A program made the position numbers and the translations under genes. 64,000 nt of DNA from Octopus vulgaris. Lineage: Eukaryota. The notes beneath the pieces are model-generated. The model did not search any database. It had not been told where the DNA came from and worked only from the letters and a program-made list of their open reading frames with translations. This document shows, one piece after another, positions 4,923-49,495 of the stretch. Position 1 is the stretch's first letter. The number at the start of each line of letters is the position of its first letter. The DNA lies in NCBI GenBank assembly GCA_951406725.2, contig OX597814.1, positions 38,936,001 to 39,000,000 on the forward strand, given 5' to 3'.

Positions 4923-5345
4923 GGCGCAGGTGTGGATGTGTTATAAGAATGTTGCCCTGCAATTACACAGGTCTGGGCGTAGTCCCTCTGCCTGTCAACT
5001 TGGGCAAATGTCTTCTACTCTACTCTCGGGCGACAAAAGAATTCTGAGAAGATTTGGTAGGATGAAAGAGAAAGAAGCCTATGGTGTGTATGTGTGTGTG
5101 CGTGCGTATGTGTGTGCATGCGCCAGTGCGTGCACTGTGTCTGTGATTATCCTTCCACTGCCGTTTCACAGTGGGTGTTAGTGTGCTCATGTCCCCGTAA
5201 CATAGTGGTTCGGCAAAGAGGAAATATAGAATAATTACCAAGCTTTAAAAAGAAGTAATGAGGTTGATTCGTTCGACTAAAACATTCTTCATGGCGGCAC
5301 CCCAGCACGGCCGCAGCCGAATGATTGAATCAAATAAAAGAAATA
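4923..5345 (+). mobile_element. SINE family A (tRNA-derived, OK/OR-like), degenerate full-length copy
   Basis: Head GGCGCAGGTGTGGATGTG, then CTTGGGCAAATGTCTTCTAC, internal (TG)n, GTCCCCGTAAC..GGTTCGGCAAAGAG and tail GGCGGCACCCCAGCACGGCCGCAG. Colinear with 24949-25349. Confidence 0.85.
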
Positions 5346-6006: not shown

Positions 6007-6044
6007 AGGCGTAGGTGTGGCTGTGTGGTAAGTAGCTCCCTTAC
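6007..6044 (+). mobile_element. SINE family A 5' head, interrupted by an ORF1-only element
   Basis: AGGCGTAGGTGTGGCTGTGTGGTAAGTAGCTCCCTTAC matches the SINE head and stops abruptly. A probable 3' remnant lies at about 7720-7851 (GTTTACGTCC..., GAAACAAGTAA). Confidence 0.75.
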
Positions 6045-7370
6045 TTCACTACTGAAGAGTTCGCCTTTTTATACGCTCTGAAGTCACAGCGTTCTGCGTT
6101 GTGAATAATTGAAAAATTGAAGCACGACTACAGGTAAGGCGTTTGTCTTTCTGCGGAGCTTAGTGGACTCCATCGTTTTGTAATTAAACAAGTTTCACGA
6201 GCAAGGGTCTCCACTTGGTTCCAAATATTTGTTTGCCTATGGTCGTGCAAAAATACTCACTTTGTAGTGAGAATTGTGTTTTATGAGTATGTGTATCCAA
6301 AAAATTCTGAAAATTTTGACTCTCTTTTTGCTCTTCACAAGGAGGATTTACCATTCAGGCAAGTAGTAAGAGTTTAATGAAAATTGGAATTTATGTGCTG
6401 CGACGGAGTACTACGAATTGTGGATTACCTGAGTAACTGAACTGTGTTGCCAGTTGAACTGTCTTCCTTCCTTTTTTTTTTGATCTGTCTTTCTCGTCTT
6501 TCTTTTTGTTTTTTCATTGAATTTTATTTGGACATTTTTGGACTTTCTGTAGTTGGAACATTTTATTTTTATTTGATTTTTTAAAATTGGCAACAAAAAA
6601 TACCGCTTTAGAGTGGCGAATTGTGGACCCCAGAGAATGGCTTAAAAATTATACTGAGAGAGCGGTGGTGTTAAGGACCTACTCTTGGGTCCTTGAAACC
6701 ATCGCTGTGTTCTCTCAGTCTGAGACTGAGGAAGAGTTGGCAGAGTAGCTGCCAACTTTTAGATTTATCCGTAGGGGAGCAAGGTATGCAACTCTGTGTG
6801 TGATTTTTGACACCCCTAAGGAGGCACAATAATTTATGTGTCAACCAGTGGAAGGAAATAATATTTGTTTCGCCCTACATACGGTAGGCGAACATTAACG
6901 AGAGCTTGGGTTTATGGGCTGTCACCCGGAACTGAGCACGAGTAGATAGAGGAGACTATCTGCCGGGGTTTGGGTGGCATTAACACCAGGCTGTTAGATG
7001 TAAAGATTATGCCTGCGGCTGACTAGGTGATGTCAAAAGCTACCTTGACACTGTGGACCCAGTCAGCGGAAGATATGGTATTACCAGATTTTTTGAAACT
7101 GGCCGGTTCCAGACACCCGGTGATACTTGAAGGGACGCTCCCTACAAGTGTCACTAGTGCCTGGAAGCAGACCACATAAAGAGGAACTGCTCTAGGAACC
7201 AGGCAAGGGTACTGGAGTAGTTAATAGATCTCCCTGTTCCCCCAAGTGTGGCTCCTGATTCTCTAACGGTGGGAGAGGAAGCGAAAGTTGAGGAGGAGGT
7301 AAATCTTTCCAAAGGGAAAAATGAAAAAAGGTGGGCAAGATTGAGAGAGAGGGAGATAAAAGGAAAATAT
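6045..7370 (+). mobile_element. ORF1-only (gag-like, CCHC knuckle) non-LTR element, copy 1, decayed and 3'-truncated
   Basis: From about 6586 it translates to EWRIVDPREWLKNYTERAVVLRTYSW..ETIA..EEELAE, homologous to the ORF at 26335. Knuckle CH*CLEADHIKRNC at 7149-7190. Stops and frameshifts are present. Confidence 0.8.
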
Positions 7371-7439
7371 CCTACCTATTTGAATACTTTATGAAATATT
7401 TCGAAAAAATAAAAAAAATCATTTCATTTAATTTTTCTT

Positions 7440-9398: not shown

Positions 9399-9483
<85 letters not shown>
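8932..9483. repeat. Long imperfect (TA)n microsatellite (~550 bp)
   Basis: Directly visible; it is the source of the YI-repeat ORFs. Confidence 0.97.
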
Positions 9484-9485
<2 letters not shown>

Positions 9486-9641
9486 GATGGGCGTCTCTCA
9501 GTTTCCGTCTACCAAATCCACTCACAAGGCTTTGTTCGGACCGAGGCTATAGTAGAAGACACTTGCCCAAGATGCCAAGCAGTGGGACTGAACGCGGAAC
9601 CATATGGTTGGTAAGCAAGCTACTTACCACACAGCCCTCCT
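9484..9641 (-). mobile_element. SINE family A, 5' half
   Basis: Reverse complement reads GGAGGGCTGTGTGGTAAGTAGCTTGCTTACCAACCATATGGTTCCGCGTTCAGTCCCACTG...GAGTGGATTTGGTAGACGGAAACTGA. Confidence 0.9.
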
Positions 9642-12257: not shown

Positions 12258-12564
12258 TGTGTGGGGGCGTGCGTGTGTTTGTATGCGTATATATTTGTAT
12301 ATTTTATGTATTTCAGTTATGTGAAAGCGGCAATACTGGGGTACAAGCATAGATACTTTATTTCGAAAGATTCCACCCGATTGCTCTATAGGGTATTGGC
12401 CAGGTACCTATAGGGTCTATAGGCTGTAGGCCAGGTACCTACTTTAGTGATCTGATTTGCTGTGCTGCTAAGTTGTGGGGACGCAAACACACCAGCAACA
12501 CATTTCGAGCGGTGGTCTTGATAAAACATACACAGAAAGATACAAACACACACACGCACATGCA

Positions 12565-12624
<60 letters not shown>

Positions 12625-24948: not shown

Positions 24949-25349
24949 CTGGCTGTGTGGTAAGTAGCTTGCTAACCAACCACATGGCTCCGGGTTCAGT
25001 CCCACTGCGTGGCATCTTGGGCAAGTGTATTCTGCTATAGCCCCGGGCCGACCAATGCCTTGTGAGTGGATTTGGTAGACGGAAACTGAAAGAAGCCTGT
25101 CGTATATATGTATATGTATATATGTATGTGTGTCTGTGTTTGTGTGTCTGTGTTTGCCACCCTAGCATTGCTTGACAACCGATGCTGGTATGTTTATGTC
25201 CCCGTCACTTAGCGGCTCGGCAAAAGAGACCGATAGAATAAGTACTGGGCTTACAAAAATAAATCACGGGGTCGATTTGCTCGACTAAAAGGCGGTGCTC
25301 CAGCATGGCCGCAGTCAAATGACTGAAACAAGTAAAAGAGTAAAAGAGT
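24949..25349 (+). mobile_element. SINE family A, near-complete reference copy
   Basis: A box TGGCTGTGTGG, B box GGTTCAGTCCC, body, (TG)n linker, and tail GGCGGTGCTCCAGCATGGCCGCAGTCAAATGACTGAAACAAGTAAAAGAG with a repeated end. Confidence 0.92.
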
Positions 25350-25617
25350 ATATATATATATATATACAGAGAATGTGAGAGAGAAAATGAGAGAAATGAG
25401 AGAAAGTTATGTGGTGGGCGTTTGTGCGTGTTTTTAAGTTTGCGTGAAATTATGTAAAATATTTCTTTTCCTGGGGTTATATTTATCAAATCAATTATAG
25501 CTTCGCTTGGGATTGCTCATTTCAGACATGAAGTTAAAATAAAGATGAAACATAAATAATTGCATTGTCGATGATTGAAGTTTATATGGATATTTCATAG
25601 CAAAATAGATATATAAT

Positions 25618-25650
25618 CAGGAGTGGCCGTGAGGTAATAAGCTTGGTTCT
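25618..25650 (+). mobile_element. SINE family A head, split from its body (28240-28562) by two tandem insertions
   Basis: CAGGAGTGGCCGTGAGGTAATAAGCTTGGTTC. The SINE resumes at 28240 with AGAAGCTTGCTTCCCAACCACATTATTCCGGGTTC. Confidence 0.8.
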
Positions 25651-27766
25651 ACTGCGCATGTGCGAATAATTGTGGCGTTTGGCACCAAAGCGAAGAGACG
25701 TGCTCTTGAAGCCGTCTCGAATTGTAAATTTTTGAAGCTCCACTGTAAGGTAAGATTCTGTTTTTTGGGTCCAGTGGTAATTTTTGTTGAGAATTTTTTC
25801 TTGCACAGGCAGGAATCCTACTGGTTTCAGAATTCCGATCTACCTGCATGGAGCGAATATTTTTTGCCACTTAATTGTGAGAATTTTGGGGGGCGTATTA
25901 GTCTTCCTATTTAGTTGTTTATGTTAAGGGAATATTGTTTTCCCTTAATTATGAGAATTGTTGTGTGGAGGATATCGCACCTACTAAAAATTTGTTCACC
26001 TTTTGAAGAATTTGAAAATAATTGTGAGGACCGCTGTTTTGGGGGTGCCTTCGAAGATTGAACAGTTTGTATACCAGTTTTTGTGGAAGTTGAGTTCCAG
26101 TTGTGGCGTTCCTGGTTCAACCTAGGCCGGGAGTACTGAATGGCCGGAATATTTTTTGTGTTTCTGAACTATTGATTTCATTCGTCTAAATTTATCTCAC
26201 TTTCTTTTTTTTGTGAATTGTTTCCTTTTCTCCTTTCCATTTTATTGACTTTCTTTTGATTTCTTTTTTCTTCTCTCTTGTTAAGATTTATTTTGAGCTA
26301 TTTTCGAACCGATAAAAAAAGGGGAAATATAGCAATGAAAAAAGAAAAAGATATGGAGTGGGAGATTGTACAATCAAAAAAGTGGTTGAAAGACCGTGAA
26401 GATAGGACGGTGGTGTTGAGAACCTACTCCAAGTCACCCGAGACCATCGCCCTACCCGAAAAGACCGCAATTGAAAAGGAGTTGGCAGAGAATTTGCCAA
26501 TAATTAAGTTCATTTCCAGGGACGCCAAACACGCAACGGTGTGGTTGCTATTTTATACCCCTGCGAGTCAGCCTTTGGACGGCGAGGAATTTTTTTTCTT
26601 CCCACGTATTGTGGGAAGAGGTTGTCGAAAGTTTTTGTTCTGCGTGTTGCCACCCGGAATAAAACTCGAGTGGATAGAGGAGACTATCCGCCGGGGTCTG
26701 AGTGACAGCGGAGCTAGGCTCATTAATGTGAATGTTTTTCCTGCGGTTGATTGGGTTGGGTCAAATACTGTTTTGAGCCTTTGGACTCAATCATCCAATT
26801 TGTTTTTTCCAGTTCTGTTTTAAATGGACGGTTGCAAGCATCTAGTGTTTCTTGAGGGCCGCTCTCCCAGGTGTCGTCGGTACCTGGAGTTTTGCCATAT
26901 AAAGAAAAACTGTCCCCAGGAACAAAATAAGGTCTTGGAGCATTTGAGTGAGACCTCTGTAGAAGAGAAAATGAAGGCGGCCGAGGAGGCGGAGGACTCC
27001 TCAAACAGGTGCCGCAAGAGGAGGAAGGTTCGCACTGAAGGATCCTAGGGATGAGGATGGGGAGGCAAATCTCTAGGTCACGGAGGAGACGCACCCTCCC
27101 TCAGTTGAAAATAATAAATAGGAAGAGAAACGAGACATTGCCGGCAGTCGGAGATATAGTACCGGATTGTCCTGCAACTACGGCGGTTGGGGTTGTGCCA
27201 CCGACAGGAGAAGTGTGCCGCCAACGGAAGAATTGGATATCCTGTCCCCAGAGGAAGACGAATTATTGATCTTCTATAGAGGCGGAGAGGTTGAACAGGT
27301 GGTGGTAAAGCACCATAAGGGAGCACCTTTATCTTTCACACAGGATCCCGTATGGTCTCCGCAGATAGCTGTGGAGGTCATAACGTTTGACGTGGAGTTT
27401 AGGCTGGAGGGGCTCAATGACAAATATCGCTTGAACCCGGGCGACGCCGACACGGAACACTCTTTAATCTTGAATGAGGCGTAGAGGATGGAAGAGGATG
27501 CGGGTACAACCGATGTTAAGGGCGAGTTACAAATTGTGGCACTGTGACACAATCATTTGATAACCGGCACTTGGCCTTCTTCTTTCTAAACTCCCGGCTG
27601 TTAACGCGGTCTGCTCTGCAGGCGGCTAGATATTTGACTGGGGGACCGGAAGGAGGAGAAGGGAAAATTGATAGTGTATTTTTGATGCTTGATTGACTTT
27701 TTGATTTTTATGTAACAAAAAAAAAACTGTGATTGTAAGGCCCCCATGGCCAATTTGATAAAATAA
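25651..27766 (+). mobile_element. ORF1-only (HAL1-like, probably Tx1/L1-related) retroelement, copy 2, apparently complete
   Basis: About 680-bp 5' UTR, a broken ORF from 26335 to about 27484 with knuckle CRRYLEFCHIKKNC (26872-26913), then a short 3' UTR ending ATAAAATAAA and a target duplication. No APE or RT sequence recognised. Confidence 0.8.
26335..27484 (+). pseudogene. Gag/ORF1-like nucleic-acid-binding protein, disrupted
   Basis: Consecutive ORFs 26278-26823, 26824-27048 and 27167-27484. Degenerate CCHC knuckle followed by a charged/basic region. Paralogous to 6586-7350. Confidence 0.75.
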
Positions 27767-27781
27767 AGAAGCTTACTTCCC

Positions 27782-28239
27782 GGAGGGAGGAGTCCGTGCC
27801 CTGGACAGAGGACGAGGAGTGGCATTCGAAGGTGACTACGAAGATCATATTGGATGTCGCTATGGTCAGGGTTATGAACACCTCCTCAAAGAACGTGTTT
27901 GCCTAAGGGAAGCGTAAGCCTGGTCTGGGAGGAGGGGCTTTGTGTATAGTGTTTATATATATATTACATGTAATTATTGAAATATGTTGTTGTTTGTAAT
28001 GGACTGTTAAGTCCAAAAATTGAAAAGTTGTAAAAGTTGTAATACCTCCTTTAATACCTCCTTTTGTGTTTGGTTTTAAAGAACTATGTTTTAGAGAAGC
28101 AGAAGTCGGTGGGCGCTTTTTGTTTACTCCCATCCTTATCATCTTTCTTTCATTATCATTCATTTGATTAATGTCCTTGTCCTGCACGCAAAGATACTTT
28201 TCTCTATGTACTGTCTTTATGGAATATGTATTGAAGTAG
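27782..28239 (+). mobile_element. Second, 5'-truncated insertion in tandem at the same SINE site
   Basis: Bounded by AGAAGCTTACTTCCC (27767-27781) and AGAAGCTTGCTTCCC (28240-28254). Its reading frame VPWTEDEEWHSKVTTKIILDV weakly resembles LSFTQDPVWSPQIAVEVITFDV of the upstream ORF1 C-terminus. Confidence 0.65.
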
Positions 28240-28411
28240 AGAAGCTTGCTTCCCAACCACATTATTCCGGGTTCTTTCCAACTGCGTCTCACTTCCGTCT
28301 CACTTCTGTCCCACTTCTACTTCAGCCTCGGACCGACCAAAGACGTGTGAGTGGATATGGTATATGGAAACTCAAAGAAGCCCGTTGTATATACATACAT
28401 ACACAAGCGCG

Positions 28412-41609: not shown

Positions 41610-43440
41610 CACGGATCGGCTGAAAAGTTCTCAGGCTGGCAAAATTACCATCATAGAATGTGTCCAAATCAGGTTTATTTTTTAATATAATCCCGCTTGG
41701 AGTTCACACACTTCTTCCAACGGCTGCAATCCTTCCAACGGCTTCTCCCAAATGGCTGCAATCCTTGCAGCCATTTTCGAAAGAGTTTATATCCTATTGG
41801 TCAAAGAATCAAATACGACGTAAAAATATTTCGGTACTGATCCATAGCCAAGTGTTTCTCTAATCTAGATGAACAAAGGATAGTCAGATTGAGCCAAATC
41901 AGTAGAATAGTGAGGGTGACAAACTAATCCAAAAACACAATCGCCCACTAGAACCAGTGAAAGCAAGAACTTGTGTGCTGAAGCAATGTTGTGGTGAGAC
42001 AGGACACGTTTTGTCAGTTTTCCTGACATCACCGAGGTGTGCAATACTCTATAGTGACGACGTGACTCTCTTTGAAGACAATCAAAACTACATTTCTTTT
42101 GCAACCCAAAACATGAGGCTGGGGAGGAAGGGTGTTTGCACTGCATGGATTGTATCTTTGTTTCTGGCACAACTTGGGTTCGCAAACGTTCGAGGAAATC
42201 AGTTGGATCTCAGAAAAATAATGTTAGCTTTTTTTCCCATGATGTGATCAGCCTAGTGCACATTTGATCAGGTGTTAGAAAAAGTGGGATCTATAAGGCA
42301 GAAATTTTCATTATGGAAAATCCGTTGTGTAGAATGTTCTCATTTCCTTCTCTCACGAAATATGTTAATGGCATTGGCAATTTGATTCATAATCAATACA
42401 TTATCATTCATCACCATATGATGAACACTGTCAATGTTTCCTTCGGTGGTGACAGTTGCAGGATTTTCAAACATTAGTTTATCTTCAAGACCCTCCCTTC
42501 CCTTTCTATATTCAGCAATTCCCTTTTGCACTGAGATTTTGAGCTCTCATAAGGAGGCGAGTGTAGGTTCCATCCAACCGCCTCTCAAGCTTCTTTGATA
42601 ACGTCCAGGTTTCTGAACCATATAGTAGAATTGGTTCGACTGTGGCTTTGAAGATTTCAAGTTTGAAGTCTCTACTTAGATTTGATGACCAGATCTTATG
42701 CATGTCATTACAGGCTGACCAGGCCAGGGTATGGCCTCGTCAGCCTGTAATGACATGCATAAGATCTGGTCATCAAATCTAAGTAGAGACTTCAAACTTG
42801 AAATCTTCAAAGCCACAGCCGAACAAATTCTACTATATGGTTCAGAAACCTGGACGTTATCAAAGAAGCTTGAAAGGCGGTTGGATGGAACCTACAATCG
42901 CCTCCTTATGAGAGCTCAAAATATCTCGTGGAAGTGCCATCCAACCAAAATGCAAATATATGGGAAATTACCACCTGTGTCATCTCTTGTGAAAGGTAGG
43001 AGAGTCCAGTTTGCTGGACATTGTTGTAGAGCTGAAAAAGAATTAATTTCTACTCTTCTCCTCTGGAAGACATCTACTGGCAATATCAGAGGGCGCACAC
43101 TCTCCTACCCTGATGTAATCTCCAGGGATACAGGCATCCAGAAACAGGACCTCCGTAATGCCATGATGGACCGTGAAGTCTGGCTTAGCATGGTAAATTC
43201 CATTGTCTCTACCACGGTCGAACAATGATGATGATGAAAGCTGTGGCTTCACCCGCTAATGTAGCAACCATATCAACATGAATGTCCTTAGGGGTTACCG
43301 TGTTTTCCAGGTATATGTACCACCACTATTCCAAATTTTGTCTATTTCCCAGAAAAGTGGCTTCTAGTAACATTTCAACATATCTGTCAGATATGAGTTT
43401 ACCTGGAATGATACGATGTAGTCATAATTAAGTGGAGTTG
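41610..43440 (-). mobile_element. Mariner transposon, decayed, interrupted by an RTE insertion
   Basis: TIR CGGCTGAAAAGTTC at 41617. HPHYSTDLAQSDY and QKGIAEYRKGREGLED..PATVTTEGNIDSVHHMVM. N-terminus PKDIHVDMVATL resumes at 43237-43350. Related to 23690-24625. Confidence 0.88.
42533..43236 (+). mobile_element. RTE-clade LINE 3' fragment with fold-back inverted 5' duplication and (TGA)n tail
   Basis: ORF 42731-43228 contains ILLYGSETW..RRVQFAGHC..LLW. 42533-42726 is the reverse complement of 42732-42925. Confidence 0.9.
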
Positions 43441-49388: not shown

Positions 49389-49495
49389 CTGGCTGTGTGG
49401 GAAGAAGCTTGCTTCCAAACCCTATGTTTCTGTGTTCAGTCCCACTGTGTAGCAACTTGGGCAAATGACTTCTACTAAATCCTCGGGCCAAGCAA
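49389..49495 (+). mobile_element. SINE family A 5' fragment with an intact (empty) target site
   Basis: TGGCTGTGTGGGAAGAAGCTTGCTTCCAAACC..GTTCAGTCCCACTG..CTTGGGCAAATG. Confidence 0.8.

Follow-up and report, generated by a model that had tools for sequence, protein, structure and literature searches.

The window analysed here, a 64,000-nt stretch of the Octopus vulgaris genome (assembly GCA_951406725.2, contig OX597814.1, positions 38,936,001 to 39,000,000 of the forward strand), holds a decayed 2.6-kb ORF1-only retroelement at a fixed base in the head of a SINE, where it was likely inserted in trans by the APE-RT of an L1/Tx1-type partner LINE. The locus (window 25618-28393) is laid out in Table 1. 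An earlier note, made from the sequence alone, had described a SINE copy split by two stacked insertions, with a junction motif present three times and target duplications of about 15 bp. The split SINE and the three motifs (starting at 25637, 27767 and 28240) are indeed as described. A pattern fitted to the motif, and thus itself derived from these copies, has four matches in the window versus 0.07 expected, the fourth being an unsplit SINE at 49403. A target duplication is also real, but it measures 14 bp, concerns only the first and the third motif with three mismatches between them, and leaves the middle motif as an internal, inherited copy. The CCHC ORF of the note is present in decayed form: it has a stop at 26821-26823, a frameshift near 27025-27038 and further stops, and its knuckle is without the second Cys. 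In tblastn it aligns with an intact 414-aa relative in two frames, with 61% and 47% identity, while three pieces of the ORF gave no match in Pfam. ORF2 homology is absent throughout the window, in agreement with the idea of an element without ORF2. In the contigs of the four sequencing runs searched (organisms A-D) no empty allele was found; the 5′ junction of the locus is spanned in organisms A, B and C.

Table 1. Features of the composite element and its split SINE (window coordinates)
Feature	Position	Strand	Basis or remark
SINE head remnant with A-box-like motif (5′ half of target SINE)	25618..25636	+	Sequence; same head at 21/21 intact family 5′ ends; tRNA-Lys alignment
5′ copy of 14-bp target-site duplication, decayed	25637..25650	+	
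Composite non-LTR element of the ORF1-only type, 2.6 kb, a single insertion unit	25651..28239	+	Internal junction at 18 loci; halves co-vary
5′ UTR, opening with the TGCGCATG palindrome common to sister families	25651..26328	+	Putative promoter
Decayed ORF1: two RRM-like domains, CCHC knuckle, basic and acidic tail	26329..27530 (end approximate)	+	tblastn; fold of family core
3′ UTR and tail of upstream part, ending ATAAAATAA	27531..27766	+	Same tail directly abuts SINE in L008 and L011
Internal target-motif copy, relic of the tandem insertion from which the composite arose	27767..27781	+	
5′-truncated piece of sister ORF1-only family: ORF1 C-terminal remnant, 3′ UTR, tail of the composite	27782..28239	+	74-76% match to L075/L077/L079; alone at 8 loci
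3′ copy of target-site duplication	28240..28253	+	
Remaining SINE, decayed B box and body	28254..28393	+	73% to intact SINE copies of the window

The palindrome at the start of the 5′ UTR (window 25651-25665; also in L190 and L146) marks the 5′ end of several ORF1-only families in either orientation, and we take it to resemble an NRF1 site. Elsewhere in the window, a second, older ORF1-only relative occupies the same site immediately after a SINE head (6008-7380), with an ORF1 remnant at 6599-7238 and its 3′ end gone. The window also contains a 194-bp inverted repeat (42533-42925) with arms that are 97% complementary and a spacer of 5 nt; the arm resembles the coding sequence of another retroelement.

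The claim of two stacked insertions at this very locus did not hold. The junction between the upstream part and the second piece, a 0.49-kb truncated end of a sister ORF1-only family, is identical at 18 loci, and the shared minor alleles of the two halves correlate across 16 of these 18 (rho 0.42, Mantel p 0.0002; L002 and L018 were omitted since their second piece is broken). The element is therefore best seen as one inherited 2.6-kb chimera with the middle motif inside it. It is very unlikely that the short piece inserted here first and the long element independently entered its 5′ duplication afterwards. Genuine stacks in which different families occupy one SINE are frequent, and the short piece stands alone at eight loci, as such a course of events would have it. 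However, among the twelve copies that retain the first tail, ten carry the same second piece with the same breakpoint (in the other two the SINE directly abuts the tail), at a ratio of empty to filled sites of about 100 to 1; the halves co-vary, and the deletion derivative of the composite forms a group of its own. The fifteen copies that lack the junction through an internal deletion fall together on one side of a branch (91/77). All eight solo copies of the second piece share one start position. In the tree they are interspersed with the composites (8 changes for 8 rows), and at about 94% pairwise identity they match these in age. Support is weak in the second-piece tree, where 1 of 36 branches is starred, and the first-piece tree reproduces the second-piece groups only in part (3 changes). 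A young intact family keeps a 3′ UTR that matches the second piece. Returning to the inherited chimera, it is simplest to assume that one stack turned into a source element, that cDNA synthesis halting at the internal target produced the solo copies and that deletions led to later subfamilies, although the solos could also stem from recombination between target copies after insertion.

The target SINE is about 400 bp long and ends in short A-rich repeats. The supposed tRNA origin of its head is moderately borne out: in a colinear alignment (z about 5-6 versus shuffles) the head matches tRNA-Lys(TTT)-type genes of this genome best among 35 tRNA sequences of 10 types, but Rfam gives no tRNA match for it. 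On the tRNA-Lys alignment the insertion point falls just 3′ of the A box. Genome-wide, at least 58,747 exact matches to the SINE head are empty at the site while 584 exact sites are filled (all variants), or about 100 empty per filled. A loss of Pol III transcription in each split copy is plausible; since only about 1% of the exact sites are filled, an effect on the SINE family as a whole is doubtful. Other copies of the SINE in the window (4923-5341, 9460-9636, 12425-12588, 24950-25350 and 49390-49495) are not split at the site. At three exact junctions genome-wide, found with the one SINE tail searched, the tail of the 400-bp SINE itself abuts the target site (L161-L163).

Searches of the 2.8-Gb genome with the two pieces of the element produced 2068 and 1263 first-look candidates, of which the best 40 each were scored and 30 each fetched. 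The resulting 56 distinct loci were chosen irrespective of their flanks; five are without a 3′ end and L002 is without the terminal part, which leaves 50 with a terminal 3′ end. The prediction that copies across the genome would abut the same target is confirmed by 49 of these 50 ends (up to 4 of 15 positions mismatched), and 47 of the 50 run on into the SINE. All 21 recognisable 5′ ends (L001-L030, with the false anchor L013 dropped) come after the SINE head and target. An exact tail-target pattern in the old site variant has 93 matches, versus 0 for a control. Upstream of the tail-target junctions lie many different families and also short truncated inserts, of about 40-650 nt between SINE head and tail (L063, L064, L066, L076, L086 and L108), with the head directly in front. 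Because only the best candidates were scored in the searches, degenerate off-target copies may be under-sampled. A fixed 3′ end, variable 5′ truncation, a short target duplication and no terminal repeats are all found, as in non-LTR elements that insert by TPRT. An LTR element or the gag of an endogenous retrovirus, for which LTRs, a 4-6-bp duplication and a capsid-type gag would be expected, was considered as well and is ruled out by the 14-bp duplication, the lack of LTRs and the RRM folds.

HeT-A is known to form head-to-tail arrays at a fixed site. Here, single SINEs hold head-to-tail stacks of up to 6-8 units (L184-L185, L186-L187 with L156, and L188-L189; L159 is also stacked), and these mix several ORF1-only families and the partner within one SINE copy. 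The site variant moves with the age of the family, from AGAAGCTTGCTTCC to AGTAGCTTGCTTAC to AGTAGCTTGCTAAC, in partners and passengers alike. The T variant is present at 100 of 100 listed young partner ends; among the first 100 empty sites listed it accounts for 84, the A variant for 16. The excess of the T variant at young ends may reflect either a site preference or overwriting by the RNA of the element. Several 5′ junctions (L011, L014, L017, L024, L025, L030, L144, L145, L153 and L160) show additional or changed target-like bases, which would fit an RNA that starts within the upstream duplication and joins by homology.

The site might alternatively be set by tethering to Pol III factors on the SINE instead of by an endonuclease that reads the sequence. 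Its position between A- and B-box-like motifs would suit such a mechanism, and TRE5-A is described as targeting through a contact between ORF1 and TFIIIB (available text of PMC3159450). We nevertheless consider tethering unlikely. Insertions also occur at duplications within stacks, where 14 bp of target are all that is left and the promoter is no longer intact, the position is exact to the base, and the uniform T variant at the listed young partner ends differs from the mixture at the empty sites. Sequence reading by the endonuclease of a partner is our preferred explanation for the fixed position.

A site-specific APE-RT partner had been predicted, and it exists in the form of a 5.45-kb LINE that has intact copies and shares both the tail and the SINE site. 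We traced it from a junction locus (L061) that carried the end of an ORF2, with a search that scored the best 150 of 18,947 candidates. All 29 other fetched loci, selected by protein, end in the same tail at the target site, followed downstream by the SINE in 27 cases and by another element in two. Twenty partner loci were fetched at length, 14 of them picked for an open ORF2: sixteen of the twenty have the SINE head, the 14-bp duplication and a unit that is mostly 5.45 kb, three lie behind another family member in a stack and one is without the head. The partner ORF1 (488 aa) contains a zf-CCHC, and the ORF2 (1140 aa) combines APE, RT and zf-RVT, with human L1 ORF2p as its best solved relative (E 3e-67). 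Exact partner 3′ ends abut the target in 103 of 113 cases. Sixteen of 20 older partner loci likewise end at the site; at the other four the target was not found near the ORF2 end. At G000:C9:2664555-2675452, three 3′ ends of the partner follow one another at intervals of about 5.43 kb, likely as a tandem of full-size elements.

The partner copies also decide whether the SINE is the target or an integral 5′ part of the element. Among 25 copies the last 600 nt are 99.3% alike; the SINE sequences on their flanks reach 93.7% and do not track them. The SINE was thus there first and is a target, as originally assumed. It is extremely improbable that SINE head and tail belong to a large composite retroposon that moves whole. 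The extra target-like bases at the 5′ junctions of L011, L014, L017, L024, L025 and L030 seemingly come from the source copy and would fit such a unit. The far greater divergence of the SINE flanks, however, refutes it for the tail; moreover, both SINE halves are kept around randomly truncated inserts, and the site is common to many unrelated families.

That the ORF1-only family is real, as the note had it, is supported by the finding that no ORF1-only copy contains an ORF2. Ten single young copies have both junctions, a length of 2.2 kb, an ORF1 of 414-416 aa and no ORF2, and twelve close young copies are 99.2% alike. Across four ORF1-only families of this lineage the dN/dS of ORF1 is 0.12-0.25 (the ORF1 of L203, frameshifted and excluded from this range, gives 0.16-0.39). 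Judged from these sequences, the lineage is old and under purifying selection, with young intact members. One could suppose that the copies are ordinary LINEs that lost their ORF2 after insertion, as apparently happened at one older partner locus (L180) with two copies mostly without ORF2; the ten intact single copies with both junctions, the purifying selection on ORF1 and its distance from the partner ORF1 make this hardly credible. At L180 itself the two older-partner copies stand in tandem with most of ORF2 deleted, and it is possible that this represents a recent route to a new ORF1-only family.

The ORF1 of the lineage is only 25-28% identical to that of the partner (29% with E 9e-23 in one comparison), while a second ORF1-only lineage is nearer to it, at about 39%. 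With an ORF1 this distant, the partner that we found is not the direct parent of the window lineage. The window family, at about 94% pairwise identity, also predates the young partner and would have depended on an earlier one. A model of the family core has two RRM-like domains and a CCHC knuckle (pLDDT 75.9), whereas the vertebrate L1-type ORF1 consists of a coiled coil, an RRM and a CTD, with no knuckle. In VIA-align the core model reaches a best Z of 7.8, a middling value at a level that the tool calls common, and the Atlas groups it with CCHC and ZCCHC3-type RNA-binding proteins. A search with the ORF1 alignment among longer proteins gave no match, which is weak evidence. HAL1 proper can be ruled out on account of the two RRM-like domains and the CCHC knuckle in the model; the element is HAL1-like in its working only. 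The ORF1-only elements share their 3′ tail with the autonomous partner. Thirty partner and passenger tails have ATGAAATAA-like ends and a 4-bp hairpin that was picked by eye and is 92% paired. Covariation in this eye-picked hairpin is 0.405 versus 0.158 in shuffles (0 of 500), while RNAalifold found no consensus structure in the same 30 tails.

We propose the following mechanism. The APE of the partner would nick the bottom strand 3′ of the A box of the SINE, and its RT would prime on RNAs that end in the shared tail, a short hairpin followed by ATGAAATAA. A second nick would be made about 14 bp downstream, so that each insertion would rebuild the target at its 5′ end and later elements could stack head to tail. 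One such stack, with a full element in front of the 0.49-kb truncated sister, would then have been read as one RNA and become a new source element. Composite copies that halted at the internal target would have left the 0.49-kb solo copies, and deletions would have given rise to subfamilies whose tail is still carried by young intact members. The retained ORF1 protein might package the RNA of its own element. Mobilisation of the ORF1-only elements in trans by the ORF2 of the partner is likely, to the extent that sequence comparison can tell.

The partner is Tx1-like, and its membership of the Tx1 clade is likely. It has an N-terminal APE, an RT and a C-terminal zinc finger, with L1 ORF2p as the nearest solved structure, an arrangement expected for Tx1 that also fits the L1 clade; a preference for a target sequence, a further trait of Tx1, is found as well. 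The nearest named relative of its RT is from Argonauta hians (64% identical). A look-up of its cluster for Tx1-labelled relatives returned two named proteins only, with no clade label on either. In a FastTree of 102 rows built without labelled Tx1 or L1 references, the RT falls among elements associated with U2, U1 and U5, with deep nodes at 0.37-0.80. Relatives of the RT in metagenomes, at 25-40% identity, adjoin a U2, U1 or U5 gene at 7 of 20 loci scanned. Distant RT relatives at metagenome loci L234, L236, L238, L287, L293 and L256 abut U2 (at position 35), U1 and U5. The U2 junction of these elements resembles the SINE site, being the best of 172 U2 windows, a likeness noticed post hoc (shuffle p 0.002 for the young variant and 0.02 for the old). 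A search of this genome for a U2 junction with the tail of the present family gave 0 matches.

Taken further, these data could mean that one SINE base has been a long-lived niche for a whole community of retroelements, with stacks founding new families. A site-specific LINE, possibly retargeted from a Keno-type U2 site, would have followed the drift of the SINE through three variants; the target, rebuilt with every insertion, would have permitted stacks, read-through chimeras and finally new ORF1-only families. We advance this reading tentatively, since all of its parts together are possible rather than probable, but stacking as a source of new families is in itself likely. If the reading is true, site specificity itself generates retroelement families, and the locus in the window is the fossil of a founding chimera. 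The usual relation in which a SINE exploits a LINE is reversed here: it is the LINEs and their passengers that use a SINE, as a place to land. With its young intact partners and passengers and its target variants of graded age, the genome makes it possible to ask how APE specificity is gained or shifted, for what reason ORF1-only elements retain an ORF1 of their own and how new families arise from tandem stacks. A compact enzyme of 1140 aa that, as predicted from its sequence, inserts in trans at a 14-bp site by means of a short tail could also be of interest for targeted gene insertion.

Transposon-targeting LINEs of the Tx1 type and ORF1-only passengers are known; what appears to be new is the SINE head as a target. 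No description of a LINE that targets a SINE head was found in the literature searched, which included the available text of PMC4494074, PMC5786205, PMC3159450, PMC4640811, PMC8869645, PMC3747384, PMC9004415 and PMC13282606. Repbase, Dfam, most subscription papers and the supplements of PMC4494074 with their flank lists lay outside this search, and a prior description there is possible. The available text of the octopus repeat annotation reports 13 recently active L1-Tx1 families and does not contain the words target or nested (PMC13282606).

Among the systems in the available text of PMC4494074, Tx1L targets Tx1D, Tx1-Mar targets Mariner-N4_AMi and has SINEU passengers, Tx1-8_Crp and Tx1-4_AMi target LTR elements, and Tx1-9_AMi targets Harbinger. 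The present case resembles these in that an APE-RT LINE prefers a mobile element, with passengers that share the target and with nested insertions. It differs in that the target is a single base in the promoter head of a retro-SINE, that the passengers encode an ORF1 and that stacks appear to have become source elements. Keno, which targets the U2 snRNA, and other Tx1 families directed to small-RNA genes (available text of PMC4494074 and PMC4640811) likewise insert with base precision into a small-RNA-type sequence and make a short duplication; their targets, however, are functional RNA genes, whereas the target here is a dispersed SINE of at least 58,747 exact copies.

The ORF1-only, non-autonomous LINEs HAL1, HeT-A and Ag-Sponge, of L1, Jockey and CR1 origin, share with our elements a 5′ UTR, an ORF1, a partner-like tail and the lack of ORF2 (available text of PMC5786205). 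In contrast to what is described for them there, the octopus has two or more deep ORF1-only lineages at a common internal site that is defined by sequence. A further parallel is TRE5-A of Dictyostelium. According to the available text of PMC3159450 it is tethered by protein and inserts about 50 bp in front of tRNA genes, and TRE5-A.2 is a deletion derivative of TRE5-A.1. TRE5-A.2 is again an ORF1-only derivative at a site linked to Pol III genes, is moved in trans and depends on a short structured 3′ end. In the octopus elements, by contrast, insertion takes place within the head, and the ORF1 of the passenger is distant from that of the partner. Dada elements, finally, are DDE transposons that target true tRNA genes, with no mention of SINEs in the main text of PMC8869645, and resemble the octopus elements in inserting near the A box of a Pol III promoter.
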